From IMG/VR virus record IMGVR_UViG_3300013005_000034, positions 1 to 64,000 of that record: a stretch of 64,000 nucleotides of DNA, one strand, 5' to 3'. Below, one piece after another: positions 5,726 through 25,183 of this stretch. Both the position numbers and the translations under genes were made by a program. The notes beneath the pieces were generated by a model. The model was not told the DNA's origin. It did no database searches and saw only the letters and a program-made list of their open reading frames with translations. Each line of letters begins with the position of its first letter. The stretch's first letter is position 1. The stretch comes from a virus.

Positions 5726-5736
5726 CACTTGCCACT

Positions 5737-6570: not shown

Positions 6571-6807
6571 ATGGAAATTGAAACAGTATCAGATTTAGCA
6601 AATGTAATAGCCGATTGGATTGGTGTTTATGGAGCTTGTAAAGACGAAGGTAAAAGTGATGGGTGCGAATTTTCTGAAAAGAAAGTTGCTTGTTGCAGAG
6701 TAGGATTTACAATGCACTTAGAGGAACGAATTAGAGAGGCTGTTGAAAATGATAAGAAAATTGAGGAAATGAATTTGCGTGAGCTGGCAAAGCAAAATGG
6801 AGCATAA
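6571..6807 (+). CDS. Cassette 11 cargo, hypothetical protein
   Basis: Ends at TAA(C) of the right arm. Confidence 0.7.
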   Translation: MEIETVSDLANVIADWIGVYGACKDEGKSDGCEFSEKKVACCRVGFTMHLEERIREAVENDKKIEEMNLRELAKQNGA

Positions 6808-6808
6808 C

Positions 6809-6894
6809 TCCAATCTTTGCGCTATATTAATGGAAATAAAAAGTTATTAACAATAGTATAATTAGATTATTTTATTACCTATATTTACCACAAT
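6809..6894 (+). promoter_or_regulatory. Conserved array-terminal element, copy 1 (attI-like site plus probable promoter)
   Basis: tttgcgctatattaatggaaataaaaagttattaacaatagtataatt shared with 18412-18496 and 25098-25183. Confidence 0.7.
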
Positions 6895-6909
6895 TAAAAA
6901 CCGAACAAA

Positions 6910-7344
6910 ATGCAAAATAACAAAACAGAATTTAAGATTAGGAATTTTTTTATAGATGAAAAAAATTATCTTCAAATTAAGAGTAATGATAAATTAATAT
7001 TCTTAACTCTATACTTAAATGGAGAAAAAAGAGGTAGGAATATAGGAACTGTTACTAAATCTACCCGAACAATATTTATGAAACGCAAAGTAGATAAACA
7101 TTTATTTAGGAAATTGAACGCTTGGGGGTTCAACGATTATGTTTTAAGAAATCAAAGTACATTCGATTTTGTGAGTTTAAGCGATGATAAAGGAAACCAT
7201 TGGAGTAAGATACCTGTAAGTATGATTTTAGAGGGAGCTACATACTTAAATTTTAAAAGTCAGGGATTTGAATTACAAAGATTTGTTTCTTTGGAAGATT
7301 TAGAGAAATATAAAGTAAAAAAAGAAGATAATACGAGATTTTAA
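6910..7344 (+). CDS. Hypothetical phage protein
   Basis: 144-aa ORF downstream of the terminal element. Confidence 0.75.
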   Translation: MQNNKTEFKIRNFFIDEKNYLQIKSNDKLIFLTLYLNGEKRGRNIGTVTKSTRTIFMKRKVDKHLFRKLNAWGFNDYVLRNQSTFDFVSLSDDKGNHWSKIPVSMILEGATYLNFKSQGFELQRFVSLEDLEKYKVKKEDNTRF

Positions 7345-7345
7345 G

Positions 7346-7837
7346 ATGAATACTGGAAACTATATGATAGATGGGGATGATGGTAGCCATTGCTTTTCTC
7401 CCTATCACAATTCAAGTAAATGTGAACTTTGCAAAGAACTTGAAGAAGAATTGGAAAAAGAACAAGAATTAGACGAAGATTTGGAAAATGATAATAACGA
7501 TGTTTTTGAATCTGAACACAAATTGCCTTTTTTAGTTGCTGAATATCCATTGAATTTAGATACTAAACACAAATGGATATGCTTTAAAGTTGGAACTTGC
7601 GAAGGACTTTGGAGATGCACCTATACGAGTTATGAGATTTTAGCACTTAAAAACAAAGAAAAAGGTAACGGACACCTCAACGATGTTTTTCAATGGTTTG
7701 AAATGAGTAGCAAAAGAGATAATAAAACTCTAAAGGTAAAAGAAGTTTGGAACGAGCGATTTCAAAACCACTTGCAAAAAAGAGGATTTAAAAGATGTTC
7801 GGCTTTTGATTTTGAAAAAACTTTTAAAAATAATTAA
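7346..7837 (+). CDS. Hypothetical protein, possible GNAT-like C-terminal domain
   Basis: KEKGNGHL...NERFQNHLQKRGF resembles GNAT motifs A/B; weak. Confidence 0.45.
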   Translation: MNTGNYMIDGDDGSHCFSPYHNSSKCELCKELEEELEKEQELDEDLENDNNDVFESEHKLPFLVAEYPLNLDTKHKWICFKVGTCEGLWRCTYTSYEILALKNKEKGNGHLNDVFQWFEMSSKRDNKTLKVKEVWNERFQNHLQKRGFKRCSAFDFEKTFKNN

Positions 7838-8140
7838 ATGGGAATGTTTGATGATTTGGTAATTGACAAAGTTCACTTACCTGACGAGTTGAAAAATTAT
7901 GAAAATGGTTGGCAGACAAAATCGCTTGATTGCTATATGAATTTTATTAAAATTGATGAAAATGGTAGTTTGTTTGAAACTATATGTCATTATCACAATG
8001 AAAAAGAAAGTCCAAGAAGAAAATATCATATCGGAGAAGTAAGATTTTACCAAAATATAAATGATGTTTGGTATGTCTTTGTCGCCTTTTTTGATGATGG
8101 AAAGATGTTTAGATTAATACAAGTAGAGCCAAAAAAATAA
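7838..8140 (+). CDS. Hypothetical phage protein (MGMFD...QTKSLD type)
   Basis: N-terminal motif familiar from small phage proteins. Confidence 0.7.
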   Translation: MGMFDDLVIDKVHLPDELKNYENGWQTKSLDCYMNFIKIDENGSLFETICHYHNEKESPRRKYHIGEVRFYQNINDVWYVFVAFFDDGKMFRLIQVEPKK

Positions 8141-8144
8141 TTTT

Positions 8145-8966
8145 ATGGAAAAAATATTTAAAATTCAACATATAAACGATTTACTTATCGTTGAATTTAG
8201 AAAATTAGTAGCCGAAGATTGCGAATTAGTATCTGATTCGGGATGTTTAATATCTATGCAAGAAAAATACATTAGCAGGAAAATAGTTTATTCGGTTAAA
8301 AAAGAATTAATCCAAGAAATAAAAGATTTTATCTCTTTAATTAAAGAAAAGAAAAATCATTATTTAGAATTTATGGCATTTGATGGTAAATTATTTATAA
8401 AAATAGAGGACAAATACCTTCGTGATGATTTTATCAAATACATAGATTTAATTGCTAATGAAATAGTATTGGATAAATCTAAATATTTAGATTTTAGAGG
8501 ATGTAAAACTGAACAAGATAAAGATAAGAAAATAGAAAAATTAAAAAAACAGGTTGATTTCTATGAATCTGAAAAATTGAGTTTTCTTGATGCTCATTTG
8601 GATTATCTAAATATGGAAATTGAAAAGTTAATTAAATATATCAATAAAGAAACTGAAAATGAACTTGTCATTTATATTACGAGTGGAGAATGTATAGAAA
8701 ACATAAGCGATGAAAAACTACTGGATTTATCAAGAGAATCAAAAAAACTATCTATTGAACTTGCAGTATTATCTGAACGAAGAAATGTAATAAATGAGGA
8801 ACTATCTAAGTTAAAAAGGCAAATTGTTATGGATAGGCTAATTTCAAATGATTTTACCATAACTGATGAATACGGAAATAAATATACTTTGCCTGAATCA
8901 ACAACTGAAAGAGTAAAAGAAAAATTGAACACGAGCTTTATTCCTAAAAAACATATTAAGATATAA
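8145..8966 (+). CDS. Hypothetical coiled-coil protein
   Basis: 273-aa charged ORF. Confidence 0.7.
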   Translation: MEKIFKIQHINDLLIVEFRKLVAEDCELVSDSGCLISMQEKYISRKIVYSVKKELIQEIKDFISLIKEKKNHYLEFMAFDGKLFIKIEDKYLRDDFIKYIDLIANEIVLDKSKYLDFRGCKTEQDKDKKIEKLKKQVDFYESEKLSFLDAHLDYLNMEIEKLIKYINKETENELVIYITSGECIENISDEKLLDLSRESKKLSIELAVLSERRNVINEELSKLKRQIVMDRLISNDFTITDEYGNKYTLPESTTERVKEKLNTSFIPKKHIKI

Positions 8967-9046
8967 TTTTAAAACTGATTATCAATACTATATAATAAAA
9001 AATTAAAATTTAACATTTACAATATTGACAATTAAAGTAAATTGAC

Positions 9047-9054
9047 TATATTTG
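9047..9054 (+). promoter_or_regulatory. Bacteroidota sigma-70 -7 element
   Basis: TATATTTG (TAnnTTTG) in an intergenic gap upstream of 9095. Confidence 0.55.
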
Positions 9055-9094
9055 TAAAAGTTTTAAATACCATTAAAAAATTCTACGGTCAAAA

Positions 9095-9592
9095 ATGAAT
9101 TTATTTATTTTATCAAACAGCAAAGAGGAATCGGCAATATTCCATACAGACAAACATATTGTTAAAATGCCGACTGAACTAAGTCAAATGTTATCGTTTG
9201 CTTATCATCATTCTAATTTATGGAAACATAATAATCCTGAATTTATTATGCAGTTTTCCAAAACACACGATTTGCACCCTTGCTCAAAATGGATGCGTGA
9301 AAGTTTATCTAACTGGATTTATAGTTGTGAGTTTGGATTAGAGCTATATAAAGAGTATCAGTTTAGATTCAATAAACCCGACAAACATCAAAGAGCAAAA
9401 AAAATATTTGAATTTTCACTAAACAACCCTCCTAATATTAAAGATATTGGCTTAACCCCTTTCGTTTGCGCTATGCCCGATGAAGTTAAGATTAGCGATT
9501 GTGCGGTATCTAATTACAGAAATTACTATAATAAATCGAAAACCCATTTGTTTAAGTGGACAGCAAGAAATAAACCTTATTGGATATATTAA
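9095..9592 (+). CDS. Pyrimidine-dimer DNA glycosylase/DenV-like protein
   Basis: MNLFIL...HTDKHIVKMPTELSQMLS...HPCSKW...YRNYY pattern. Confidence 0.75.
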   Translation: MNLFILSNSKEESAIFHTDKHIVKMPTELSQMLSFAYHHSNLWKHNNPEFIMQFSKTHDLHPCSKWMRESLSNWIYSCEFGLELYKEYQFRFNKPDKHQRAKKIFEFSLNNPPNIKDIGLTPFVCAMPDEVKISDCAVSNYRNYYNKSKTHLFKWTARNKPYWIY

Positions 9593-9602
9593 AAATAACA
9601 CT

Positions 9603-9908
9603 ATGAGAAAAACCTACAAAAAAATCAAACTTCAATTAGATACTGGGAAGATATTTGTTGAGGATGTAACCGAAAGTAACTTTCATCCCTCGCAAGTAAA
9701 TGAAATAATAAATGAAATAAATGATAAACACGATTATTCATTTACAATAGCAGAATCAAAATCAGTAAAAAAACAAACTATATCTTTAATCAAATACCAT
9801 TTGAGAAAAGTTGAAAAAGAGTTAAGTTATTTTAGAAGGCATCAGGAGTGTTACCAAAAGGCACTTGATAGAGTTTCAACAACAGATTTAATCAATGAAA
9901 ATGAATAA
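9603..9908 (+). CDS. Hypothetical protein
   Basis: Start moved to ATG 9603. Confidence 0.6.
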   Translation: MRKTYKKIKLQLDTGKIFVEDVTESNFHPSQVNEIINEINDKHDYSFTIAESKSVKKQTISLIKYHLRKVEKELSYFRRHQECYQKALDRVSTTDLINENE

Positions 9909-10332
9909 TAAAAGACCTTACAGATTAAAAGGCAATAAGTATCAGTTAGTTAATTTAAAGAAATTAACAGGGGAAGAAGTTTATTTGAGCAGAAACCAAG
10001 TTTTTGAAATAAACAACTTATTATTTGCCATAAAAGAAATTAACATAGAAATTAAAAACATAATCAAAGATGGCAAAAAAGGTACAAATAAAAGATGATT
10101 TAATCACAAATGAAGAATACAAAACTTTGAATATTATCTTAAATAAGATTCGTGTTCAGTTAAATTCCAAGATAAGCATTAGAGATACATTAGATGGCTT
10201 TATTATTATTCAAACTTACAATGATTCAGGAATAATTAGAAGTGAGGTGAAAACAAATAGCATAAAAACTGGTGTTAATTTTCTATATAACAAAATTTAT
10301 TAAATGAAATGTAATTTAAAATTATAATAAAA

Positions 10333-10497
10333 ATGATAAAAGTAGGAAGTGATTTTAGCGGAGTTGGTGCTTTTAATCAAGCACTTATGAGATTAGGTAT
10401 TGATTATGAAGAAGTATTTGCTTGTGAAAGTAAAAGAAAAGAAAAATTAATAATTAAATATGGAAAACTTAAAAAAAGAAATAGCCAAAAATATTAG
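10333..10497 (+). pseudogene. Truncated C5-cytosine DNA methyltransferase remnant
   Basis: MIKVGSDFSGVGAFNQALMRLGIDYEEVFACE matches motifs I-II; the frame then degenerates and stops at 54 aa. Confidence 0.7.
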
Positions 10498-10669
10498 GGC
10501 TAAAAGAAAAGAACTAAAATTAAAGCAACATCAAGTTGCCAAAGAATTAAATATTATACGAAATGCAGTAAGCAGATTGGAAAGTGGCAATCATTTAATT
10601 TCTATTGATGTGCTATATAAACTATGCAAGATATTTAATTGCGAATCCAAAGAAATACTTAAATTCTAA
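10460..10669 (+). CDS. XRE/Cro-type HTH regulator
   Basis: IRAKRKELKLKQHQVAKELNIIRNAVSRLESG. Confidence 0.85.
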   Translation: MENLKKEIAKNIRAKRKELKLKQHQVAKELNIIRNAVSRLESGNHLISIDVLYKLCKIFNCESKEILKF

Positions 10670-10850
10670 AAACATGAAACAAGAAAAAGAACAACAACAA
10701 GAACAACAATCAGCATTAGATTATTTTTGGAAACAAATAAGTAATAAATACTTAGATAGCTATCAAAAAGAATTATTTACTAAATTTTATGAAAAGGCTA
10801 AGTTAATTGAAATAGAACAGCAAAAAAAAACACAATTAAAAATTAAATAA

Positions 10851-11141
10851 ATGGAAGTAGGTCAAACATATTTAGGAAAAGAGATAAAAGAAAAGCACGA
10901 ATTTAACGTGGAGGGTACTTTTGAAAGTTTTTACGCAGCTCGTACTTGGGCAGTAAATAGGGGTTATGAAATAGGCTCTATGGATGGTCGTAATCCAATA
11001 GCAATGATGAAAGGTTATGACTATGTTGCTAAATGGCATAACTTAAACAGGAAAGAACAACAATCTGTTCATGGAGTAATGATTTCAGATTATTTTAGAG
11101 AAAAGCCAGTAACAATATTAATTTTTGAAAATTCAAATTAA
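10851..11141 (+). CDS. Hypothetical phage protein
   Basis: 96-aa ORF. Confidence 0.7.
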   Translation: MEVGQTYLGKEIKEKHEFNVEGTFESFYAARTWAVNRGYEIGSMDGRNPIAMMKGYDYVAKWHNLNRKEQQSVHGVMISDYFREKPVTILIFENSN

Positions 11142-11320
11142 TATTATGAAAAAAACAACACTAATAGCAATCGCACTTTTATTGTTAATAATAATGATAA
11201 CAAATGCAATTTTTAATAAAGACAAAAGTTCAGGATATATTATCGGGATTTGTGCAGGTCTATGTTTTGGTAGAATTTTAGCTGAAATAATATAATGGAA
11301 ACAAAATTTAATTAAAAAGA

Positions 11321-11503
11321 ATGAAAGACCAAAAATTTTTAATAGTAGAAAGCGCAAAAGAAGTGAATGATTATTTAGAAAAAGGATGGGAAGTAGTTTC
11401 GGTTACGCCTCAATCAGTTTCAGTTTCAGTAACTTCTTCTTCTTACGTTTACAAAGAATTAGTAGGGAAGTTTGCAGTAGTAATTCAAAAGATAAAACAA
11501 TAA
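11321..11503 (+). CDS. Small hypothetical protein
   Basis: NDYLEKGWEVVSV pattern. Confidence 0.55.
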   Translation: MKDQKFLIVESAKEVNDYLEKGWEVVSVTPQSVSVSVTSSSYVYKELVGKFAVVIQKIKQ

Positions 11504-12081
11504 TGGAAAATATTATAAACACAGGATATTATATGCTAATAGTAGATGATTCAGAGATTAAAAAGGAAACCTATTGTTATGATTCTATAAACAATATTCT
11601 TGTTTTCTACAAAGGTAGCATGAAGAATATTGGATTTCAAAAAGTGATTAGTCATTTACCACTCAATAACTCACCAATACTTGAAAATGTACCTCTTTTA
11701 CCACCACTTGAAGATGATAATATACATTTTGGAGATTTAAGAAATGTAGATGTAGATTCTTTTATGAGTGGCTACAACAAAGCCGAAGAGAAGTATAATT
11801 TAACTTTAGATAAGTTGCTTGACTTATACATTGAAGAAAGCGGTTATGGTATGGATATGTGGAGTAAAGAAGAAAATGCAACAATGAATATTGTAACTAA
11901 AATCATCCAATCCCTCCAACAACCAAAGATGCCTGTTGGGTTTAAGTGTGAAATAGAAGCAATGAACATAGATGAAATTAGAGAACAAGGAAAAGGTTTT
12001 TTAAATACTAATACAAAGAAATTAAAAACAATAACCAACTCACAAGGTCTTACTCAATTAGTAGGGGAATACATTTATTAA
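11503..12081 (+). CDS. Paralogous family (HLPLNNSPILE...VGEYIY), copy 2
   Basis: Start at ATG 11503 (MENIINTG). Confidence 0.8.
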   Translation: MENIINTGYYMLIVDDSEIKKETYCYDSINNILVFYKGSMKNIGFQKVISHLPLNNSPILENVPLLPPLEDDNIHFGDLRNVDVDSFMSGYNKAEEKYNLTLDKLLDLYIEESGYGMDMWSKEENATMNIVTKIIQSLQQPKMPVGFKCEIEAMNIDEIREQGKGFLNTNTKKLKTITNSQGLTQLVGEYIY

Positions 12082-12100
12082 CTAAAATCAAATAAAAAAA

Positions 12101-13129
12101 ATGAGAACATTAGCATCAATTCAAACAATAAAAGACATACAGCCAATAGAAAATGCCGATAGTATTGAGGTAGCAAGTATATTGGGTTGGAAAGTAGTAG
12201 TGTTGAAAAATCAATTCAAAGTTGGCGATAAGGTTGTTTATTGCGAAATAGATAGTTTATTGCCAGATATTGAAATATTTTCGTTCCTAAAACCAAGAGG
12301 TATGAGAATAAAAACTATTAGATTAAAAGGTCAAATAAGTCAGGGGATTTGCTTTCCGCTATCCACCGTTGAGTATTTTGGCTTACTTCCCGAAGATATG
12401 ATTGAAGGGCAAAATGTAACCGAAGCAATAGGTGTCGTTAAACACGAACCACCTATCCCAGCTTGTTTAAGTGGAGTTATGAAAGGAAAGTTCCCTTCGT
12501 TCATTCCTAAAACAGATGAAACAAGAGTGCAAGTATTACAAAAACTATTAGATAAATACGAGGGAACTAATTGCTACATTACCGAAAAAATTGATGGTAG
12601 TTCCGTTACCTATTACTTAAAAGATGGGGAATTTGGTGTTTGTAGTCGAAATATGGAATTGTTGGAATCCGAAGAAAATACATTTTGGAAAATGGCAAGA
12701 CAACTTAACATTGAAAACAAATTAAGGTCTTATGGAAAAAACATTGCTATACAGGGTGAATCGTTTGGCGAAAAAATACAAGACAACAAACTAAAAATAA
12801 AAGGGCATAGGGTATTATTTTTCAATGCTTTTGATATTGACAGGTTTGAGTATTTTAATTTTGAACAGTTTGCCTTACTAATGGCAAATTTAGGATTGGA
12901 TAATGTTCCTATTTTAGATTTCAACTATAAACTATCTAACAGTATTGATAGAATTATTGAAATGTCAAAAATAAAAAGCACCTTAAATAAAGATGTTTGG
13001 GCGGAGGGAATAGTAATTAGACCTCACAAAGAACGTATTGATTTGATGCTTTCAAATGAAAATTTCAACAATGGTCGTGTAAGTTTTAAAGCAATAAACC
13101 CTGAATTTTTAATTAAGTATGGAGAATAA
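12101..13129 (+). CDS. ATP-dependent RNA ligase, DRB0094 family
   Basis: N-terminal OB-like domain; TEKIDGSS (motif I), EGIVIR (IV), SFKAINPEFL (V). Confidence 0.9.
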   Translation: MRTLASIQTIKDIQPIENADSIEVASILGWKVVVLKNQFKVGDKVVYCEIDSLLPDIEIFSFLKPRGMRIKTIRLKGQISQGICFPLSTVEYFGLLPEDMIEGQNVTEAIGVVKHEPPIPACLSGVMKGKFPSFIPKTDETRVQVLQKLLDKYEGTNCYITEKIDGSSVTYYLKDGEFGVCSRNMELLESEENTFWKMARQLNIENKLRSYGKNIAIQGESFGEKIQDNKLKIKGHRVLFFNAFDIDRFEYFNFEQFALLMANLGLDNVPILDFNYKLSNSIDRIIEMSKIKSTLNKDVWAEGIVIRPHKERIDLMLSNENFNNGRVSFKAINPEFLIKYGE

Positions 13130-13619
13130 AAAAGTATTATTTCTTGACCACGATGGAGTAATTTGTTTGGCTACGGAGTGGGGTAGTCGTTTTAAAAACA
13201 AAGAGGGTTTTGATTCTTTATTTGATAGATTCAATCAAAAGGCAATAAATGTTTTGAATGAAATAATTGATGAAACCGATTGCGAGATAGTTATTAGTTC
13301 TGATTGGAGATTTCATTGCTCATTATCAGAAATGCAACAACTATATAAAATAAGAGGAATAGCAAAACCCCCTATGGCATATACTCGTTCTGATTTAGAT
13401 TGGAAACTATTTTTAGATGTTAATCCCAATAATGAATTAGAAAAAACAAGAGTTATGGAGATATTAAGTTATGTAAAGGAATATAATTTAGTTAATTGGG
13501 TAGCAGTAGATGATATGGATTTAAGTTTATTAGGGAATTTCGTTCATACTCCAAAATCTATGGAGGGAATTAAGCAGTCAGGTGTAAAAGAAAAAATAAT
13601 TAAATTTTTAAACAAATGA
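13119..13619 (+). CDS. HAD phosphatase (Swiss Army Knife RNA-repair type)
   Basis: FLDHDGV, ISSDWR, WVAVDD motifs; overlaps the RNA ligase stop. Confidence 0.85.
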   Translation: MENKKVLFLDHDGVICLATEWGSRFKNKEGFDSLFDRFNQKAINVLNEIIDETDCEIVISSDWRFHCSLSEMQQLYKIRGIAKPPMAYTRSDLDWKLFLDVNPNNELEKTRVMEILSYVKEYNLVNWVAVDDMDLSLLGNFVHTPKSMEGIKQSGVKEKIIKFLNK

Positions 13620-13757
13620 GATATAGAATAATGACAATTATATTGTTTTTCCCTTGCTGTTTGCTTGATTTTTTATTCTTATTAATCATTTATTTGCCTC
13701 TTTGGATAGTATGTGGAACTAAATTAACATCAAGGCAACCACTATTAGAATGGATAT

Positions 13758-14054
13758 TTGAACAATCAAATAATAAACACAATGAAAACTAAAGAAGAAA
13801 TAGAACAGTTGGCAGAAAAAGAATATAGAGAATATCCTAACAACCCTTTAGATGAACCAGCATGGCATTATAACAAGGATATACATTGCCATAAAAAAAG
13901 AAAAGCATTTATCAATGGCTACACTCAATGCCAAGAAAATATTAGTGAAATTTTAAAAAAAGCTATTGAATTTGGTTATCAATTAAGGAACAATAATAAA
14001 CCTATAAATAGTGGAATTGATTGGGTAAATGAATTTAAAAAAACAAAAAAATAA
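13758..14054 (+). CDS. Hypothetical phage protein
   Basis: MKTKEEIEQLAEKEY...AFINGY. Confidence 0.65.
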   Translation: MNNQIINTMKTKEEIEQLAEKEYREYPNNPLDEPAWHYNKDIHCHKKRKAFINGYTQCQENISEILKKAIEFGYQLRNNNKPINSGIDWVNEFKKTKK

Positions 14055-14260
14055 TTTTATCATGAATTGGGAAGCATTTAAAAAAATGACCTTTAAACAA
14101 AAGTTATTCACGATTTTTGTTGTTTGTCCAATATTTTTCATTTTTATTATCCCTTTGAGCAAAGCGGTTGCTAATAAAATCTATGAAAAAAAGAAATATA
14201 AAAAAGTAATCAAAAAAGGTTTGCTTTGGGATACTGAATACTTAATAGAAAAAGACTAAT

Positions 14261-14515
14261 ATGAAAACTAAAGAAGAATTTATAGCAAACTACTTAGATA
14301 AAAGTAAAAGGTTGAAAAACCACAACTTACCTTATGGATTACAGTATCTCATCTTAGTAGCACAGGTAGAAGAAGATGCCGAAAAGAAGTATAAATCTTA
14401 CCTTAAAAAACAACAAAATAATGATATTATTTGTCCTAAATGCGGAGGAGATAGTTGGAAGTTTAATGCTGTAAAAACAACTATTAAATATTGTAAATGT
14501 GGACATGATTTTTAA
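14261..14515 (+). CDS. Hypothetical protein with C-terminal Zn ribbon
   Basis: CPKC...CKCGH. Confidence 0.65.
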   Translation: MKTKEEFIANYLDKSKRLKNHNLPYGLQYLILVAQVEEDAEKKYKSYLKKQQNNDIICPKCGGDSWKFNAVKTTIKYCKCGHDF

Positions 14516-14538
14516 CTCACTAAACAAAAAAGATTAAT

Positions 14539-14769: not shown

Positions 14770-14770
14770 T

Positions 14771-14962: not shown

Positions 14963-14985
14963 TAACAACTAAAAACAAATAACAA

Positions 14986-16622: not shown

Positions 16623-17104
16623 AAAACAAATGGAACAATTAGAACAACAATTAAATGAAAAAATGCTACAAATAGCAAAAGATTACATTCAGAGAAGAAA
16701 TGATAAACCTTTTGAGCAATACGAGGAGGCAAATTATCTTAATGAAAAATACCTTTCAGTAAAAAATGAATTTGAAAAGGAAGGCGATTTTTATATAATC
16801 TTAAATGAGTGCATAAAAGTAGTTTTAGGAAAAACAAAAAAAAATACAATATGAAAATTAAAAAAAGAAAAATTAAAAACCCTTGTACTATTTGTGGTAA
16901 AGAAGTTCGTTGGGGAATTGATGGATGCCCTATTGTTGAAAAAGGCAAAGATTTTGAAACTTTATTGGGTGGAGTAAAAGGTATGAAGCATTATGAGTGC
17001 AAATAAAATTTTTAACATAACGGTTTGCAAATAGGCAATCGTTTTAATGTTGCTTATTTGCTGTTAGCACCAATACGGATTATTAACAACAAAAATTAAA
17101 TAAG

Positions 17105-17491
17105 ATGAAAGAATTTAAAAAAGAAAATTTAGAATTTTACTTACCTGATACATTTAAAGGATTAAGTAAAGATTATTTACTTGAATGTATCTTCAATGAT
17201 GAGATACAGAAAAAATGGAATCCTGATGTTGGAGATATTATTATTGGTTGCACTGGCAATATTTTTGTAATTGGGGTTAAAGAAACATTACATGAAAGTA
17301 TTGGTGGGGCGAGATATTATTTTGGTGGTGGCTCTTGTAATAGAGATGGTGGTAATATATTAGACAGCACATTTTGTTATACCGCAAATGAATCAGGTAA
17401 GTTTTATCACACATTAAAAGGTGAAATTCAAAATATTTATCATTCGTGTATTAGAGATTTTAGATACGTTCCTTATCCACACGAAAGGTAG
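17105..17491 (+). CDS. Cassette cargo, hypothetical protein
   Basis: Between arms gttagcaccaatac/gtattggtgctaac. Confidence 0.75.
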   Translation: MKEFKKENLEFYLPDTFKGLSKDYLLECIFNDEIQKKWNPDVGDIIIGCTGNIFVIGVKETLHESIGGARYYFGGGSCNRDGGNILDSTFCYTANESGKFYHTLKGEIQNIYHSCIRDFRYVPYPHER

Positions 17492-17575
17492 TATTGGTGC
17501 TAACGGTTTGCGTATAAAAAATCGTTTTAATGTTTTTTATACGCTGTTATATTTAGTTTTTTAAAACTTTTACAA

Positions 17576-17761
17576 ATGAAAAATATAGAAGAAGCAATAC
17601 AACTTAACTCAATAGATGAAATTGAGGAAGAAATAAGACAACGAAAGGAATTAAGAGCAACGATGGTTGGTCAATTATATCCAAGAATATTAACTGACGA
17701 GATTTATAAACTCAATGAAAAGTTGTGGAATATAAGACACTCAAAAGTTTTAAAAACTTGA
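17576..17761 (+). CDS. Cassette cargo, hypothetical protein
   Basis: 61-aa ORF between the arms. Confidence 0.65.
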   Translation: MKNIEEAIQLNSIDEIEEEIRQRKELRATMVGQLYPRILTDEIYKLNEKLWNIRHSKVLKT

Positions 17762-17809
17762 ATATAACCGCTAACAGATATATGTAGTTTTAACACAATA
17801 TTTAATAAT

Positions 17810-18058
17810 ATGGAAGAAAGTAAAAATTTAGAACAAAATTTGAATAAGAGTAATGAAAAATTACATATATCTAATGTTAGTTGTAGTTTATCATACCAAC
17901 CAAGTTATGTTGAAACTGTTTGTGAAGGTGTGTTTTTCAGAATTAAAGCACCATTGATATTCAGTGCTGATGTTTTAGCTTATGCTGGTATATTTTCTTT
18001 GTTAGACAAAAAACACACCTTTGAATATTATTGCTTAAAATATCTATCTGAAAGATAA
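17810..18058 (+). CDS. Cassette cargo with linker-encoded N-terminus
   Basis: Starts in the linker loop (MEESKN...LHISN-V-SCS). Confidence 0.65.
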   Translation: MEESKNLEQNLNKSNEKLHISNVSCSLSYQPSYVETVCEGVFFRIKAPLIFSADVLAYAGIFSLLDKKHTFEYYCLKYLSER

Positions 18059-18221
18059 ATTACAACTAACGGTTTGCGTGTATAAGAAGTGGCGGATTAG
18101 AACTCCAAAACTTTCAGCAAACGCAGAACTTAATTAGAATTACAAAACATTAAATAACCAAGAAACCCGCCATTTTTTATACACGCTGTTAGTGGCTGGG
18201 CTTTTCACAAATTGAAACAAA

Positions 18222-18398
18222 ATGAACAAAATATTGATATGTGTATTATTGCAAATCGTTCTTTTTATTCCATTTTATTTGATATGGAGAAATGATTGTA
18301 AAACGATAGGTAAAGACAACTTGGCTGTTAGCTTACAAGAACGATTTTTGTATTGGCTAATATTTTGTCCAATTTGGTTGGTTGGTGTGTTGGATTAG
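18222..18398 (+). CDS. Cassette cargo, 58-aa two-TM protein (not in ORF track)
   Basis: MNKILICVLLQIVLFIPFYLIW...FLYWLIFCPIWLVGVLD. Confidence 0.65.
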   Translation: MNKILICVLLQIVLFIPFYLIWRNDCKTIGKDNLAVSLQERFLYWLIFCPIWLVGVLD

Positions 18399-18411
18399 CC
18401 TTGCCACTAAC

Positions 18412-18496
18412 TTACTTCTTTACGCTACAATTAAGGAAATAAAAAGTTATTAACAATTGCATAATTAAATAAAATAATTACTAATTTTGACCACAA
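18412..18496 (+). promoter_or_regulatory. Conserved array-terminal element, copy 2
   Basis: cgctacaattaaggaaataaaaagttattaacaat...ctaattttgaccac, contains TAATTTTG. Confidence 0.75.
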
Positions 18497-18751
18497 ATGA
18501 TACTAAAGTTTAAATACGGTTTTGAATACAATGATTTTCTTTATGGATGGAACAATAAAGAATTATACAGATTGCCCTCTAAGAGTGGCAATAAATCTTA
18601 TGGATTAAAGAAATTAGATTCTATTGTAGTTGGTAACTCAATTGGATATAGAATTAAACAACAAAAGTTCTCTTTAAAACAACTTAAAGATAGAACGATA
18701 TTCATAGACAAAGAATATCAAGTTATTAGCGATACAGTTGATATACCTTAA
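18497..18751 (+). CDS. Hypothetical protein, weakly similar to 22256..22504
   Basis: ELYRLP...YRIKQQKFSLKQLK. Confidence 0.65.
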   Translation: MILKFKYGFEYNDFLYGWNNKELYRLPSKSGNKSYGLKKLDSIVVGNSIGYRIKQQKFSLKQLKDRTIFIDKEYQVISDTVDIP

Positions 18752-18802
18752 AAAATCACAAACAAACAATAAACCAAAACACAAATCAAAATCACAAACA
18801 AC

Positions 18803-19996
18803 ATGAAAAGACAAACCACCCTCGCAGAATTGGTAACGGAGTTGAAAGACCAAAATCTGCAAAAAAAAGATTTCGTAGTTCCTGCAAATCTTTTATCAAT
18901 GGAAAATGGAAAATTAGTAGTGAACAATTATAGTTCAAACGATTCTCTACAAAAGATACTTACAGAAGTAGGTATTCAATCAGAGGATTCCAATAAACTA
19001 ATTTTAAATTGCTTACCTGTAATTCATCAAAACTTATCAGATAAATGCGATATTCCTCGTAAATACTATAATCGTATTCAAGGACTAAAAGACCAAACAC
19101 TAATTGATACAAATGTTACTCATTGGTTAAAATCCATGAAAGGAAATGTTTTTTTAAGAACATTTATTGACAAAGATGAACAAAATGGATTCGCAAGAGC
19201 ATTACTTTCAGATAGATATAACGTAATTGATAACTTTGATGTTTTATTAGCTACACTTGAAGCAGTTAAGAATAGTGGATTAAACTTAAAGATTGAAGAT
19301 AACGGTTGTGATTTATCAGAATCTAAAATGTATGTAAGATTTGTTGCTCCTGAAATTGAAATTAACGCACCCGATTTATTAAAAAACTACAAAAATCCAA
19401 AAGGTAATAGTAATGTAGGTGATGGTATTATTACTGGATTTGTTGTTACTAATAGCGAAATAGGGCAAGGTTCATTTAATATCAGTCCAAGAGCTGTTAT
19501 ATTAAAGTGCCAAAACGGAATGGTATTTAAAAATGATGCCTTTGGTAAAATTCACTTAGGTTCAAAAATGGAACAATATTCTCAAATTGATTGGAGCGAA
19601 GAAACTAAAAGAAAAAATTACGAGTTAATTCAGGCGCAAGTAAAAGATGCGGTTAAGAAATTCACAAGCGAAGATTTTTTAGCACAAAAAATAAGTGAAT
19701 TAAACGAATATGCTGAAATTGAATTAAAACATCCTATTGAAACAGTTAAGAATGTTAGCAAATTATTAAACATTACCGAAGAAAAAGAAAAAAGTATTCT
19801 TGACTTCTTTATGAGAGGTGGCGATTTTAGTTACATGGGAGTAAGTCAGGCATTAACATTCTTTGCTCACGAAACAAAAGATGCAGACGAAGCTCACGAT
19901 TTAGAAACAACAGCTATTGAAATTTTACCAAAAATTAAAGAGTTGGATAAACCCTCTGTTTCAAAATCAGTTAAAACTCAAATGAGTTTAAATTAA
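18803..19996 (+). CDS. DUF932-family protein
   Basis: RALLSDRYNVIDN, NSEIGQGS, CQNGM motifs. Confidence 0.75.
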   Translation: MKRQTTLAELVTELKDQNLQKKDFVVPANLLSMENGKLVVNNYSSNDSLQKILTEVGIQSEDSNKLILNCLPVIHQNLSDKCDIPRKYYNRIQGLKDQTLIDTNVTHWLKSMKGNVFLRTFIDKDEQNGFARALLSDRYNVIDNFDVLLATLEAVKNSGLNLKIEDNGCDLSESKMYVRFVAPEIEINAPDLLKNYKNPKGNSNVGDGIITGFVVTNSEIGQGSFNISPRAVILKCQNGMVFKNDAFGKIHLGSKMEQYSQIDWSEETKRKNYELIQAQVKDAVKKFTSEDFLAQKISELNEYAEIELKHPIETVKNVSKLLNITEEKEKSILDFFMRGGDFSYMGVSQALTFFAHETKDADEAHDLETTAIEILPKIKELDKPSVSKSVKTQMSLN

Positions 19997-20010
19997 TAAT
20001 TTAGGAAATA

Positions 20011-20040
20011 AAAAAAGGGGGAAATCACGCCCCCTTTCTA
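20011..20040 (+). terminator. Probable intrinsic terminator
   Basis: aaaggggg-aaatcacg-cccccttt hairpin after the DUF932 gene. Confidence 0.55.
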
Positions 20041-20150
20041 AACCAAAGACACTATGTCAAAATAACACTAACGCCACAATAGGCGATACTAAATTATAAA
20101 TTAAATAAACAATTAATTAATTTTTATATTATACAACTAAATTGTAAAAA

Positions 20151-21038
20151 ATGAACATCAGTCAATCACTACTAAAATCCCTATTAGATTATCGTAATGG
20201 AAAAGAATGTGGATTAATATTTAAGGCAAAGTATATAGATGGAAGATACGATTTATTTCCTCCCTCCGATGCACAAAATGTAGGTGCATGGTTTGAATAT
20301 ATGGCTACTGGTAGCATACCTAAAAATGGTATAGTGCCAAAAGCAGAATATATGAAAAGAGGTAAAGATGAAAATGGCAACCCTGAACTTACTGCCGATT
20401 ATCGCTTAATGAGAGAACATATAGATAATTTCAAAAAGAATATGGAGAGTTACTCATTAGATATTATTACAGCAGGAGAAGATATTAAAGTTTTATATCC
20501 TAATTCTTTAGAAGAATATGGAGAAGAAGTTTATTTAACAGGAACTCTTGATGTAAGAGCAAGAGCAAATAAAGATATTTTTGCTAAATACCAAGATACT
20601 ATCGTTAAGGTAGCTTCAAAAGATGAAGAAGTTATTATTGATATTAAAACGACTGGATTGTTAGACGATAAATGGTCGGAAATGGGCTGGGAGATTAATA
20701 ATCTATCAAATAAAATTAAACTTGTTACTCAACCTGTTCACTATAAATTTATTGAGTATTTAAAAACAGACAAAGATGTACCTTTTATATTTATGTTGTT
20801 CAATTCTAAAAACTCAAAAGATGCAAGAATTATTGATTTTAAAGTTGATAGTTCATCTTTTGAAGAACATAAAGCGTTTATTGAATCGGGAGTTGAAAAT
20901 ATGTTGCATTTGAGAAAATATGGTTTCAAAGCGTTGCCATCACTTGAAAAATGTTCAAAATGTCCTTTGAATACTGATTGTAAGTTTAAAGCAGAAATTT
21001 CGCCAATAACTATATTTTATTTTGCTCATCAGGTTTAA
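20151..21038 (+). CDS. PD-(D/E)xK (RecB/Cas4-like) exonuclease
   Basis: GTLDV...IIDIKTT and C-terminal CSKCPLNTDC. Confidence 0.75.
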   Translation: MNISQSLLKSLLDYRNGKECGLIFKAKYIDGRYDLFPPSDAQNVGAWFEYMATGSIPKNGIVPKAEYMKRGKDENGNPELTADYRLMREHIDNFKKNMESYSLDIITAGEDIKVLYPNSLEEYGEEVYLTGTLDVRARANKDIFAKYQDTIVKVASKDEEVIIDIKTTGLLDDKWSEMGWEINNLSNKIKLVTQPVHYKFIEYLKTDKDVPFIFMLFNSKNSKDARIIDFKVDSSSFEEHKAFIESGVENMLHLRKYGFKALPSLEKCSKCPLNTDCKFKAEISPITIFYFAHQV

Positions 21039-21173
21039 TATATTATGTTTGTATCGCACAATTCAACTAAAATGAAATTACAAAAAAAATATTTAAAAAA
21101 AACCTTTAAGCAAGTAGGAATCCTCTATTTTTAGTTGATTGTGCAACCTACTTGCGAGAAGGGATTTTTAATC

Positions 21174-21986
21174 ATGGAAACATCATTAATTATTGAAATT
21201 TCATCTTTGCCTTGTATAGATGATAAAAGAGGGCGTTATAGAACAATAGAATTATATCCAAAAATTAGTGGAATTTATAAAATAACATCTCCTAATGGCT
21301 CTATTTATATTGGTTTATCAAATGATATTTATTATAGGATTTATAGTTGTTATAAGAAATTAAGATGTAAGGCTCAACATAAAATATATAATTCTTTAAT
21401 TAAATATGGTATTGATAATCATAAATTTGAAATTATTCATATTGTTGAAAATTTTGAAGAATATGAGAAAATTAAAATTTTAAGAAAATTAGAAATAGCT
21501 TATATACAAAAATATAATTCATTTTATGGAAATAATAATTTTGGAATGAATTTAACAAAAGGAGGCGAAATAATTGAATTAACAGATGAAACTAAAAAAA
21601 TAATGAATGATAAGAAAAAAGGTAGGATTGTTTCCCAAGAAACAAGAGAAAAGTTAAGGAAAATAAATTTAGGTAAAAAATTATCACAAGAACATAAAGA
21701 TAAAATTAGTATATCTCATAAAGGAAAAATTGTTTCAGAATTAACAAAAAAAAGATTAAGTGAATCTCACAAAGGAGAAAAACATAGTTTTGAACGAATA
21801 CAAAAAAAAATTGGAAGTAAACAAAATCCTGAAACAATAAAAAAAAGAATTGATAAGATTAGCGGTATTAATCATTGGACAAAAAAATATGGCGGTCATT
21901 CAGAGCAAACAAAGATAAAAATAAGTATATCACTCAAAGAAAGGCATAAAAAAATGTCTAATAAGAATGAAAAAAACACTAATTAA
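21174..21986 (+). CDS. GIY-YIG homing endonuclease with NUMOD3 repeats
   Basis: SGIYKIT...IYIGLS; repeated SQETREKL/SEQTKIKIS. Confidence 0.85.
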   Translation: METSLIIEISSLPCIDDKRGRYRTIELYPKISGIYKITSPNGSIYIGLSNDIYYRIYSCYKKLRCKAQHKIYNSLIKYGIDNHKFEIIHIVENFEEYEKIKILRKLEIAYIQKYNSFYGNNNFGMNLTKGGEIIELTDETKKIMNDKKKGRIVSQETREKLRKINLGKKLSQEHKDKISISHKGKIVSELTKKRLSESHKGEKHSFERIQKKIGSKQNPETIKKRIDKISGINHWTKKYGGHSEQTKIKISISLKERHKKMSNKNEKNTN

Positions 21987-22278
21987 AAGAAAAAAATTAA
22001 GTAAGAGTTTAAGAATAAAAATATTTGAGAGGGATAATTATGAATGTCAGTTGTGCTATGACAATTTAATAGATAAAAAAGATTTAAGAGTAATAGACCA
22101 TAAAATACCTCTTTCAAAAGGAGGCAGTAACTCAATATCAAATCTTTGGCTACTTTGTAATGATTGTGATAAAAGAAAGAAAAATAAATTGTTTCCTGAA
22201 TTGATGAAACAATACATAAAGGGTAAGTTAAATTATCTTTCTAATTTAAGATTTAATGGAAATCGTTATAATAAGTGA
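21967..22278 (+). CDS. HNH endonuclease
   Basis: RDNYECQLC...DHKIPLSKGG...NLWLLCNDC. Confidence 0.85.
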   Translation: MKKTLIKRKKLSKSLRIKIFERDNYECQLCYDNLIDKKDLRVIDHKIPLSKGGSNSISNLWLLCNDCDKRKKNKLFPELMKQYIKGKLNYLSNLRFNGNRYNK

Positions 22279-22504
22279 ATATGAAAATTTACCTTACATA
22301 GTTAAAAGCGAGAATGGAGAAATATATCAGTTAAGTTATTATGATACTAAAAAAAGAATTAAAAAATACAAAATATTAATACCTAAAGAGCATAACGGAA
22401 GTATGTATTATAGAATTAATAGTGAGAGATATTCAGATTATAGATTAAAAACAATTGAGATTAAAGTTTATAAAAGAATTAACCTAAATAAAATAAAAAA
22501 ATGA
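22256..22504 (+). CDS. Hypothetical protein
   Basis: ORF track. Confidence 0.6.
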   Translation: MEIVIISEYENLPYIVKSENGEIYQLSYYDTKKRIKKYKILIPKEHNGSMYYRINSERYSDYRLKTIEIKVYKRINLNKIKK

Positions 22505-22791
22505 AACCATTAAAAATCAAAGGAGTTAAATTAAAAAAAGGAGAAGAATTATTACATTATTATCCTTTTTGTTATTGCATAGCAAAATCTACTGAAAGTA
22601 GTGCTTTATTTGTAATACCTCCACAAAATAAAGGAACTGTTGCAGATAATGGTTATTTAAGCGTTTGTTTTGATTATAAATTATGTAAAGATGTAAAAGT
22701 AGGAGATTGGTGCGAAGTAGGTTATATAAGTGATTATAGTAAAGGAGAAAATAAAGTGCTTAAAATATTAAAATCTAAAAAAAATAAATAA
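22501..22791 (+). CDS. Hypothetical protein
   Basis: ORF track. Confidence 0.6.
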   Translation: MKPLKIKGVKLKKGEELLHYYPFCYCIAKSTESSALFVIPPQNKGTVADNGYLSVCFDYKLCKDVKVGDWCEVGYISDYSKGENKVLKILKSKKNK

Positions 22792-23023
22792 TATGAATAA
22801 AAAAATTAATATTATAGGAATCATTATTTTTTTATTTTCTCTTTCATATTTAACAATATACACTATGATTATTGATTTATATTATGGTATATCTATGGGA
22901 TTAATTTCAATTTTATTTATAATAATTATATTAAAAAGTAAAAAAAAGAAAAATGAATAAGTATGGAAAATAAAAATACTTTCTATGGGATTGAAATATT
23001 TAAAAACTAAAAAAAATAAAAAT

Positions 23024-23061
23024 AAATAAAAACAAACAAAATGAAAACAACAAAAACAAAA
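23024..23061 (+). repeat. 38-bp direct repeat, left of array 3 (second copy 25205-25242)
   Basis: aaataaaaacaaacaaaatgaaaacaacaaaaacaaaa at both sites. Confidence 0.7.
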
Positions 23062-23085
23062 ACAAAAATGAAAACAACAAAAAAA

Positions 23086-23313
23086 ATGGAACACAAAAAT
23101 TTGAATACAAAAGAAACCGCCAATAGCGATTTAGGTGCTGTTAGCGGTAGTTTGAGGGAACAATCTCTTGAATGGTTTTTCGCAAAAAGTGAAATTGAGA
23201 AACACGATTTAAAAGACAAACACTTTCCAAACACACCAATACAGCATAGTAGGCAATGGGGATTTCATTTCACTTTTGGTCAAATTGAGGAAATGTATGT
23301 TAAAGAACGGTAA
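23086..23313 (+). CDS. Cassette cargo with linker-derived N-terminus
   Basis: MEHKNLNTKETANSDLGA-V-SGS crosses the GTT at 23140. Confidence 0.7.
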   Translation: MEHKNLNTKETANSDLGAVSGSLREQSLEWFFAKSEIEKHDLKDKHFPNTPIQHSRQWGFHFTFGQIEEMYVKER

Positions 23314-23391
23314 CAAATTACCGCTAACGGTTTGCAAATATATTTCAGTTGCGGTAAAAATAATAATAACTTAATTAAATAAATAAAAAAA

Positions 23392-23946
23392 ATGGAAAAC
23401 ACAAAAAAAGCATACAAAGAAATATTTAAAGTCTTAAATAAATATAAAGATGTTATTGTTATTGATATTAAAACATTAGAGGAAAAATCAAAACTCCATT
23501 TATTTGGATTAGAATTAAAAGAAGTTTACGGACTTGAAATCAATGAGAAACGTATCAATAATATGCAATATCAGGAATTAAAAGACAACGTATATCTAAC
23601 TTTTATTGATAGCGAAACGAGAACTATAAGCTGGGAAGATAATGGCAAAAAACCAAAAGGAGAAAGTTTGATTAAGTTTAGTTATCCAACAGGAGCTTAC
23701 ATTTTTGGTGGAGATTATCCTACTGATTTTTTCCAAAAGTTTTTTTTAGAATTGAAATCATTTAATCCCGATTATTGCGATAGCGCCAATAAAAGCCTGT
23801 ATTTTAAATTGGAAAATGCAAAAGAAATATTTAATAGTTATGATTCAATAATAAAAAAATATTACGAATTAAACAAAGAAGATATTAAACAAAGACAGAT
23901 TTTAAAAATGAAAGCCGATTTAGAAAAATTAGAAGCAAGTAAGTAA
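23392..23946 (+). CDS. Hypothetical protein in a damaged cassette
   Basis: 184-aa ORF; right arm present, left arm missing. Confidence 0.75.
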   Translation: MENTKKAYKEIFKVLNKYKDVIVIDIKTLEEKSKLHLFGLELKEVYGLEINEKRINNMQYQELKDNVYLTFIDSETRTISWEDNGKKPKGESLIKFSYPTGAYIFGGDYPTDFFQKFFLELKSFNPDYCDSANKSLYFKLENAKEIFNSYDSIIKKYYELNKEDIKQRQILKMKADLEKLEASK

Positions 23947-24135
23947 CGCACCCACAGGCGGGGAGGGTTTTAAAACTTGTACCTAACGGTTTGTGTATAA
24001 AAAATCGTTTTAATGTTTTTTATACGCTGTTATAACCAGTAGGGATTATTAAGTACAAATGCTCATTCGGAGAAGTAAACAAAAAATTAAAACAAAAAAA
24101 GTGTAGGGAATAATTAATCAATTAAATAATAAAAA

Positions 24136-25008
24136 ATGACAACAGAAAAACAATTTGGCGACTTATCACATTTTGCAAAAAGAGATGTAGAACTTTTTAG
24201 AAGTTCAGACCAAAACGAAACCGCTATCTATTTTACGGAATTAGAAGATAAGCAAAGAGAAACTGCGAAAGCGTTTTTTGAAATACTGCGATTTGGCTTG
24301 GATGGTGGCGACCATCAAATATATGTTCGTTTCCCAAATACTGACCATTTTGTAGAAATGATTGGTGGTGGATTTGGTTCAGGTAGAGGGTATATGAAAG
24401 TAGCTGATGGTAAAAATGTTTGGGAGGATAAAAACAAAGCACCATTTAGAATCTATTCACATAATAAGGATTTACTTTTCATAATTGGTAGAACTGATTG
24501 GACTGGAGAATTTAATTTTATGACAAAAGTTGCAAGTTATGATAAAGGAAATCCATTCAATCATCCTTATCCTAATGAAACATTTGTGAATTTCAAAGAG
24601 ATTGAAAAAGCACTTTCAATGAAATATTTAAAGATACCTGAAAGTATAAGAAAGATTGAATATTGCTACAAAACTAAAGATACAACACCAAAATATTTTG
24701 TAGTGGATTATCCAGCTTACAATTTCAAATATGACAACCATAGATTTTTTGTGATTGAAAATGAACATATAAAAGAATTTGGGATTAAAAACTTTGTAAG
24801 ATACAAAGATGGTGGAACAACTATCATTACTGTAACCGATGAAAACGGAATTGAACACAAATTCTTTTCACCAACATCATTGCCTGAAAAAACGCTTTGT
24901 GAAAAGTGGGATAAAACTGAATTGATAGAAGCAAGTGAAACTGAAAAGCAAAAACTTACAGAACTTTTGAATTTGAATGTAGAACCAAATATAGTTGACA
25001 AAGAATAA
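24136..25008 (+). CDS. Cassette cargo, hypothetical protein
   Basis: 290-aa ORF inside a shell homologous to cassette 4. Confidence 0.8.
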   Translation: MTTEKQFGDLSHFAKRDVELFRSSDQNETAIYFTELEDKQRETAKAFFEILRFGLDGGDHQIYVRFPNTDHFVEMIGGGFGSGRGYMKVADGKNVWEDKNKAPFRIYSHNKDLLFIIGRTDWTGEFNFMTKVASYDKGNPFNHPYPNETFVNFKEIEKALSMKYLKIPESIRKIEYCYKTKDTTPKYFVVDYPAYNFKYDNHRFFVIENEHIKEFGIKNFVRYKDGGTTIITVTDENGIEHKFFSPTSLPEKTLCEKWDKTELIEASETEKQKLTELLNLNVEPNIVDKE

Positions 25009-25097
25009 TCATTTAGTCATTTGTGTGTGGATTTTTTTGTTTTAATTTTTTGAACGATAAAGTTAATTCGGAGCAGTCCACACCTATTGGTTATAAC

Positions 25098-25183
25098 TTA
25101 TTTATTTGCGCTACAATTAAGGAAATAAAAAGTTATTAACAATAGTATAATTATGTAAAATAATTACTAATTTTGACCACAAT
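25098..25183 (+). promoter_or_regulatory. Conserved array-terminal element, copy 3
   Basis: tttgcgctacaattaaggaaataaaaagttattaacaatagtataatt...taattttgaccac. Confidence 0.75.

Follow-up and report, generated by a model that had tools for sequence, protein, structure and literature searches.

A candidate attI-type junction joined to a probable promoter closes three hairpin arrays in a virus record

Classical integrons possess an attI site with an adjacent promoter, as in attI1 with Pint/Pc, and in T4-type phages the promoter-stem-loop (PeSL) modules have been proposed to mediate gene shuffling. Cassettes have also been reported from phages: in its available sections, the paper of Qi et al. (2023, PMC9892861) describes a cluster of attC sites lacking an integron integrase (CALIN) with two methyltransferases in Polaribacter phage P12002L, one attC site of which was recombined by IntI1. 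This was the only paper that our literature search found on attC arrays in phages of this group, and the search found no description of an attI-like end for integrase-less phage arrays. On the bacterial side, the available text of a review (PMC8618304) names Bacteroidota among the phyla having integrons. Here we analysed a window of 64,000 nt, which is the first 64 kb of the linear 73,651-nt IMG/VR virus record IMGVR_UViG_3300013005_000034 (G+C content 28%; estimated completeness 62%, with some 25-40 kb of the genome missing). Three arrays of attC-type hairpins in this phage record are each closed by a copy of the same 89-nt element. Because of the anatomy of the site, its polarity, the kinship of its arm with bacterial attI sites and the cassette turnover seen in a sister system, we lean slightly towards regarding the element as an attI-type junction arm fused to a phage promoter, which would be a landing site served in trans.

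So far, integron cassettes in virulent phages have been described as orphan attC clusters, for which no route of entry is known. A working attI-type site would supply one: were the element such a site, recombinases of the host or of a co-infecting phage could renew the accessory genes, which include methyltransferases and numerous unknown small proteins, at fixed places, and the phage and bacterial cassette pools would be linked in Bacteroidota. The attI architecture of Flavobacterium, phage arrays that are accompanied by an Xer-like recombinase of the phage and the systematic gene inversion in phage cassettes, all described below, are also of interest to the integron field.

The 89-nt element and the arrays that it closes

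The three copies of the element lie on the plus strand, at 6805-6893 (copy A), 18408-18496 (copy B) and 25094-25182 (copy C), and close arrays 1, 2 and 3, respectively. With copy B as the reference, copy A is 78% identical over 89 nt and copy C 92%. An earlier note on this DNA had claimed that one element of about 85 bp ends all three arrays, and this was borne out, each copy starting at the closing TAAC; the likeness among the copies begins at this TAAC, and the left flanks differ in all three. A 23-nt core, GGAAATAAAAAGTTATTAACAAT, is invariant across the copies (0.01 matches expected from 100 shuffles with up to 3 mismatches) and lies with the palindrome GTTATTAAC in a 33-nt block (6832-6864, 18435-18467 and 25121-25153, plus strand) that is the same in copies A and C. 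The same note had stated that no hairpin follows the last AAC of each array. This holds for copies A and B, whose DNA does not fold (z +0.72 and -0.74), but not for copy C, which is an imperfect palindrome, GTTATAACTT..AAGTTATTAAC, with a fold z of -3.51 equalled by 0 of 200 shuffles. The motif search that the note had proposed revealed no fourth copy in the whole 73,651-nt record (3 forward, 0 reverse), nor was an inverted partner of the element found in the genome; distant relatives turned out to hold one half of the element once each, without arrays (see below). The genes to the right of the elements encode proteins of 144, 84 and 271 aa, none with a recombinase domain, and the ATG of the 84-aa gene follows copy B immediately (18497).

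The record contains ten TAACGKTTTGY hairpin starts, all of them on the plus strand (0 reverse); they form three clusters, with one element copy closing each. Array 1 (2598-6808) contains hairpins at 2598-2666, 3415-3469, 4102-4199, 4452-4545, 5021-5112, 5386-5490 and 6464-6520 and long-range hairpins at 3119/3245, 4749/4871 and 5737/5853, all on the plus strand; its genes are small plus-strand open reading frames (ORFs), among them one for an MT-A70 methyltransferase at 5810-6466. Array 2 (17015-18411, plus strand) contains hairpins at 17015-17070, 17498-17552 and 18063-18195 and a long-range one at 17766/17878. Array 3 (23120-25097, plus strand) comprises a relic arm within an ORF (23120-23146), a truncated hairpin (23322-23360), a hairpin (23982-24036) and the end of an inverted repeat (25008-25097). 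The half-linkers previously proposed at about 2470 and 23120 are indeed relics, both inside ORFs; the presumed orphan right arm at about 17010 is instead the complete hairpin 17015-17070 (z -1.66). Apart from the decayed leftmost members, no leftward gradient of hairpin decay was observed in the arrays.

Each hairpin is composed of an R stem of 5-6 bp (ATAACG/TGTTAT), a 4-nt bulge on the 5' arm, an L stem of 12-20 bp and a variable centre. The fold z was -3.4 to -5.3 for 8 hairpins, and the AAC..GTT cores and the asymmetric unpaired spacer are those of attC sites. As in a CALIN, there are three clusters of at least two sites and no recombinase in the record. In the four long-range hairpins the 3' arm falls within the opening codons of the following ORF, which yields peptides like ..ADVM.., and therefore attC and gene start overlap within one cassette. 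An inverted repeat of about 75 nt with GTTATAAC at both ends surrounds an ORF at 3462-4108 (151 aa) and again at 24029-25097 (290 aa), the two ORFs being unrelated; this arrangement looks like an attC with the gene in the loop. Arrays 1 and 3 have hairpin-plus-untranslated-region and inverted-repeat modules in common, at 83-94% identity.

The cassette boundary could be located in array 2. Its last cassette (18067-18411, plus strand), consisting of an attC hairpin and a 58-aa ORF, is 88.4% identical over 346 nt to an unrelated phage contig (L098). The similarity begins at the hairpin TAAC and ends at CACTAAC|, beyond which L098 has another attC and the present phage has copy B. From these boundaries we concluded that a phage cassette is a hairpin followed by an ORF and that the element abuts a true cassette boundary. 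Judged by this comparison, the cassette beside copy B is a discrete mobile unit ending at the junction, and its 88% match to the other phage suggests a recent acquisition at that position.

To identify the hairpin family we relied on its occurrence elsewhere. A pattern scan of IMG/VR matched at least 115 contigs; among the matches listed, at least 9 of 12 stem positions were complementary in 64 hairpins. Of the 115 loci, 62 contained more than one hairpin, and there were 27 clusters of at least three. For covariation analysis, the 34 of 45 pattern matches with at least 8 of 12 complementary positions were taken; 30 of these were aligned (4 near-duplicates were left out) together with 2 copies from the window. 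In the resulting 32 short members, 92.3% of the cells were paired, against 72.9% in shuffles (0 of 500 as high), the pre-selection by complementarity itself favouring pairing. The L stem showed changes on both sides in 11 of 12 pairs, slid controls gave 32-50%, and a G-T (G-U) pair closes the R stem in 29 of the 32 sequences. We concluded that the hairpins are selected structures of the attC type.

The family is widespread in phages of Flavobacteriia; isolates account for 26 records, including 21 Cellulophaga phage records and Polaribacter phage P12002L. In P12002L the hairpins are situated between the methyltransferase genes, and from this location we infer that they are the CALIN sites described in the available sections of Qi et al. 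(2023, PMC9892861); it is because the same family lies in the region of the published CALIN that the present hairpins are linked to attC sites and CALINs. The two cases have in common integrase-less attC arrays, phages of lytic type, methyltransferase cassettes and the hairpin family itself, whereas an attI-like end, an inverted ORF orientation and multiple platforms are not described in the available sections of that paper. As for other origins, a scan of positions 1-34000 against Rfam (E <= 1) gave only a chance microRNA match. The possibility that the hairpins are IS200/IS605-type ends of a resident TnpB element was rejected; the TnpB hairpins, GCGTGGGTGGG, differ, and no Y1 transposase gene was seen in the annotation. 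The T4-like PeSL modules resemble the present arrangement in that the small accessory genes of a hyperplastic early region have recurring regulatory modules on their flanks, but were set aside because the hairpins carry no promoter; moreover, the hairpins have AAC/GTT cores and are also found beside tyrosine recombinases, and the promoter-bearing element occurs only three times.

The junction arm and its bacterial counterparts

The left 25 nt or so of the element have the form TAAC-N10-GCGCTAC (6805-6829, 18408-18432 and 25094-25118). Read on the minus strand, this candidate attI-type junction arm is ..TTGTAGCGCAAATAAATAA|GTTATAA in copy C, and AAC-N10-RCGCTA occurs on the plus strand of the genome only at the three element sites.

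Counterparts of the arm were found in bacteria. A scan of GTDB gave at least 120 loci, nearly all in Bacteroidota; among the matches listed, a hairpin was verified in 98, and 38 contained at least three on the same strand. In three Flavobacteriaceae chromosomes (L284, L285 and L286) the order is tyrosine recombinase gene (at 9929-10972 in L286), attI, cassettes. The best match of this recombinase is NCBIfam NF040815 (XerA/integron integrase); TIGR02249 matches in two pieces and under the cut-off, and the IntI insertion is lacking. An ortholog is present in 117 of the 201 sampled genomes of the genus of G007 (Flavobacterium), and a predicted chromosomal integron-like platform is common in this genus. 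The cassette genes in the three chromosomes are co-directional with the recombinase gene, and the TAACGKTTT strand is antisense to both; in 30 further Flavobacterium loci this strand was opposite to the recombinase in 9 and the same in 3. Calibrated by these chromosomes and by the recombinase-bearing phage loci described below, the polarity of the arrays therefore places the phage element at the attI end, and all three copies abut, at TAAC, the end of the first cassette (G|TT).

The orientation of the genes separates the two kinds of array. Among the matches listed (115 viral loci), the ORFs flanking phage hairpins are on the bulged TAACGKTTT strand in 214 cases against 36, while in bacterial arrays beside a recombinase the cassette ORFs are on the other strand (0:9 in L222 and 0:8 in L227). 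Loci on genome contigs are bimodal in ORF strand, and short contigs binned into metagenome-assembled genomes (MAGs) resemble the phage class. One contig filed in a Flavobacterium MAG (L259) carries a phage-type array and is 34,585 nt long, as is IMG/VR viral contig L151; it probably represents phage DNA that was placed in the bin of the host.

In the Flavobacterium attI sites (L287-L316), the parts downstream of the recombinase gene are, in order, a TATATTTG box, a repeat, CTACCCAAATTTGGGTGTATA, the inverted repeat, the repeat once more and TATATACAA|GTTR, after which the cassettes begin; the repeat is of three types, TAGCG, CGAAGGTTTGTTTCG and GTCTGA..TCAGAC. The register AAC-N10-GCGCTAC is common to the phage copies and the sites of the TAGCG type. 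Thus the phage and bacterial sites are alike in the register of the junction arm (..GTAGCGC-N10-|GTT) and identical in attC family, and copy C equals the site of L296 at 16 of 19 bases (by eye). They differ in that the bacterial site adds a second, inverted copy of the repeat, the conserved CTACCCAAATTTGGGTGTATA core and, directed into the cassettes, a TAnnTTTG box, and lies downstream of a co-directional recombinase gene.

The likeness was scored with a matrix of 26 junction arms from the 30 Flavobacterium loci; L295 and L298 (no recognisable site), L304 (contig end) and L313 (junction missed by the pattern) were dropped. The junction of copy C scored 21.8 and ranked first among 147,256 genome positions, a score reached in 1 of 200 shuffles. 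Copy B scored 8.8 (per-position p 2.6e-5) and copy A 5.4 (p 1e-4); copy B, though weak on the matrix, is the copy at the ancestral position. The arm is also found in other, unrelated phages. The array end of phage L110 shares 21 nt, TAACTTACTTCTTTACGCTAC, with copy B and has retained the inverted repeat in full; the array ends of L061, L135 and L157 show the same arm register, and none of these four has the promoter half. Among the 115 other phage loci listed, 7 of 13 matrix hits scoring at least 11 were correctly oriented and no more than 1.5 kb to the right of a hairpin, as were all of the top three; 13.8% of positions qualify for this.

A recombinase of family PF00589 is encoded in 7 of 28 array-bearing phage records. 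In four of them (L133, L129, L055 and L127) the array ends with a lone YTAAC, and the start of the recombinase gene is 45-80 nt farther to the right; in a fifth the gene lies about 2.8 kb to the right (coordinates only), and in two it is far from the examined locus. L133 (1-9892) and L129 (2449-11399) are 99.985% identical over 6,856 nt from the TAAC, including a 277-aa tyrosine recombinase (3108-3941 in L133). To the left of the TAAC they carry unrelated cassettes (2.65 against 1.7 kb), and farther left they are 97% identical again. These two phages, whose only differences are the cassettes that lie between an attC and the TAAC beside the recombinase gene, constitute a case of cassette turnover at the junction in a sister system.

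Compared with a classical attI, the element is likewise at the upstream end of its array (on the canonical strand) and abuts the first cassette at G|TT, one side is conserved and the other holds variable cassettes, and the neighbouring promoter points as Pint does. It differs in lacking an integrase gene behind it, in a promoter that serves ordinary phage genes, with none directed into the cassettes, in its three copies per genome, and in that each is a half-site only. The attG-type secondary sites (bioRxiv 10.1101/2022.09.11.507474, in its available part) are also alike in that cassettes stand outside a canonical attI at GTT with a lone R' half at one junction; here, by contrast, the target resembles attI arms and is reused at three loci.

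The probable promoter half and the competing explanations

The right 55 nt or so of the element extend from AAAGTTATTAACAA to ACCACAA. The earlier note's finding of TAATTTTG in two copies was confirmed for B (18482-18489) and C (25168-25175), both on the plus strand; copy A has TATATTTA (6880-6887), with one mismatch. This is called a candidate -7 promoter box on the basis of TAnnTTTG at -7 and TTTG at -33, which we take to be the Bacteroidota consensus. A -33 TTTG was sought about 19-21 nt upstream of the box, and only a TTG in copy B, at 22 nt, was seen by eye. In two distant relatives (G001 and G002), the ortholog of the 84-aa gene is preceded by AAAGTTNTNAACAA and then TAnnTTTG, a combination that occurs a single time in each; the -7 box reads TATTTTTG and TAAATTTG, and AAAGTTNTNAACAA occupies the position of the 33-nt block. 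Copy B sits where the relatives (L027 and L028) keep this orthologous promoter, while the 25-nt arm and the hairpins are absent from both genomes. Since the relatives keep the right half upstream of the orthologous gene, the right 55 nt are probably backbone promoter sequence, and a promoter in this half of the element is plausible.

Several observations weigh against an attI-type landing site in the phage. As the promoter half is present in array-less relatives, the 85-89 nt do not form a single attI unit. Lying on the plus strand, the TAATTTTG box reads away from the arrays and does not have the orientation of Pc, whereas the TATATTTG box of the bacterial sites reads towards the cassettes; in addition, the first 34 kb contain TAnnTTTG 22 times on the plus strand, close to the number that we estimate from composition. 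The arm corresponds to the proximal half of the bacterial attI, the second repeat half (GTAGCG) and the CTACCCAAATTTGGGTGTATA core being absent. Copies A and B are weak on the matrix, 11 genome positions scoring at least 5.4 and 4 at least 8.8, and the matrix test was devised post hoc with mononucleotide shuffles only. No integrase is adjacent: PF00589 at E <= 1 had no match in the 73,651-nt record, which is about 62% complete. The evidence for turnover comes from L133 and L129 and not from this phage, and the three copies are homologous, representing one event rather than three. Finally, an nhmmer profile of the full 89 nt found nothing significant at other phage arrays; its best E value (0.036) came from chance 20-mer loci, and L061 and L135 gave 5.6 over model positions 1-25. 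In exact matching, the 21 matches of a 20-mer of the core in IMG/VR were each single, in unrelated sequence and without shared flanks, and the exact 23-mer had 0 matches in metagenome contigs, where near-identical records may be hidden.

The proposal of an attI-like site coupled to a promoter stands in part: as to polarity, arm kinship, the discrete cassette and the plausibility of the promoter, but not as to a single attI unit, and it is weakened by the half-site and the missing recombinase. In the composite form given at the outset, it would work as follows. A tyrosine recombinase would be supplied in trans, by a host chromosomal integron or by a co-infecting phage encoding one, and would join a folded attC to G|TT (AA|C on the plus strand) at the left edge of the element. 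Each cassette is an attC hairpin followed by a small ORF, the phage ORF being on the bulged ('bottom') strand. New cassettes would enter beside the element and older ones would shift to the left; the right-end entry and leftward erosion put forward in the earlier note would fit this order. The cassettes would be transcribed by read-through from the left, and the element would restart transcription for the backbone genes to the right. On this reading the three sites would still be in use in this phage, and such a recombinase would act on them.

A bolder generalisation, which we put forward tentatively, is that lytic Flavobacterium phages keep integrase-less landing pads, each made of half an attI and a promoter of the phage, and during infection borrow an Xer/IntI-like recombinase from the chromosomal integron of the host, with which they would take up and exchange cassettes of a phage-specific pool on up to three platforms at a time in one phage. 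The cassette genes are inverted relative to those of bacteria, so under this generalisation they would be carried by phage read-through transcription.

Of the explanations that dispense with a working site, one holds that the arm is a relic. The array with its attI arm would have arrived in a single import, its source being a bacterial integron or a phage with a recombinase, and would then have been fused to the promoter of site B and copied to two more places through homologous or illegitimate recombination; the arm would no longer be an entry point, and later changes would be due to attC x attC or ordinary recombination. It would account for the presence of only half of the bacterial attI architecture, for the drift of copies A (5.4) and B (8.8) from the matrix, for a record without a PF00589 recombinase and, as intragenomic copying, for the 83-94% identity of the modules of arrays 1 and 3. 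Yet the arrays hold different cassettes, and none of their 19 ORFs was noted as a paralogue (in comparison with other loci, not all against all); the likeness of the copies stops at TAAC in all three, which en-bloc duplication would not predict; and the 88% identity of the copy-B cassette to that of another phage suggests recent acquisition. We consider this relic explanation unlikely, though deserving of mention.

About equally improbable in our judgement is that the 89 nt are an ordinary promoter with upstream regulatory sequence, triplicated at three operon starts. The arrays would have piled up there since the ends of transcription units tolerate insertions, and the TAAC and the attI likeness would be due to chance or to neighbouring attC halves. 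The promoter half at the orthologous site of array-less relatives agrees with such an origin, as does the location of the best-conserved block (33 nt, with its palindrome) in that half and not in the arm; few other TAnnTTTG boxes are near early gene starts (4 within 60 nt). Against it stand the left 25 nt, which are not in the promoters of the relatives, the arm at the array ends of L110, L061, L135 and L157, which occurs there without a promoter half and in the same register as in bacterial attI sites, and our own estimate of about 1e-5 for three random placements among some 75 gene junctions all falling at array ends.

It is very improbable that the sense-strand hairpins act as RNA punctuation that processes, stabilises or terminates early transcripts, with the element as the next promoter and a convergent likeness to attC: the co-orientation of all ten hairpin starts with the genes, the excess of phage ORFs on the bulged strand and the G-U pair closing the R stem would suit it, but in bacterial arrays next to a recombinase these hairpins lie antisense to the genes, the cassette boundaries are at AAC/GTT and no Rfam family matches, and a role in RNA would in any case not exclude one in DNA.

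The phage record and its other features

The small genes of the window are on the plus strand up to about 33.8 kb, beyond which structural and lysis genes are on the minus strand. Among metagenomes, 24 runs (lake or freshwater) contain the region, the lake runs covering 45-92% of it. Even the closest isolates are distant, with a 74-nt match to Tenacibaculum phage Gundel_1. A search with the 397-aa and 84-aa neighbour proteins retrieved only G001, G002, Gundel_1 and one more contig, all of them distant and without hairpins at the site of the element; G001 and G002 share a dozen genes with the phage and are about 80% identical to it in one neighbouring protein.

Three paralogous genes are located in the early region, at 1013-1825, 11386-12081 and 26861-27481, and further duplicated blocks are found there at 3-88 and 28080-28165; together they point to probable segmental copying inside the genome. 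A-rich repeats with short ATGAAAACAAC.. frames border array 3 on its left (23009-23101) and copy C on its right (25190-25291). An RNA ligase (PF09414 with a PHA02142 OB domain) adjoins a protein with a HAD 'Swiss Army Knife' RNA-repair domain (12101-13619), a pair which suggests repair of tRNA or other RNA as a counter-defence. Homing endonuclease genes of the GIY-YIG/NUMOD type and the HNH type are found at 21135-22278, in the backbone between arrays 2 and 3, and at 63473-64438 of the record. The gene at 36037-37212 (minus strand) encodes a 391-aa 'transposase' (phrog_506, E 3e-121), which from its sequence we take to be TnpB-like and which has hairpins of the GCGTGGGTGGG type on its flanks. 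The motif GTGGGTGGGC, seen at this gene, recurs within array 1 at 4035-4045 and 6530-6541.

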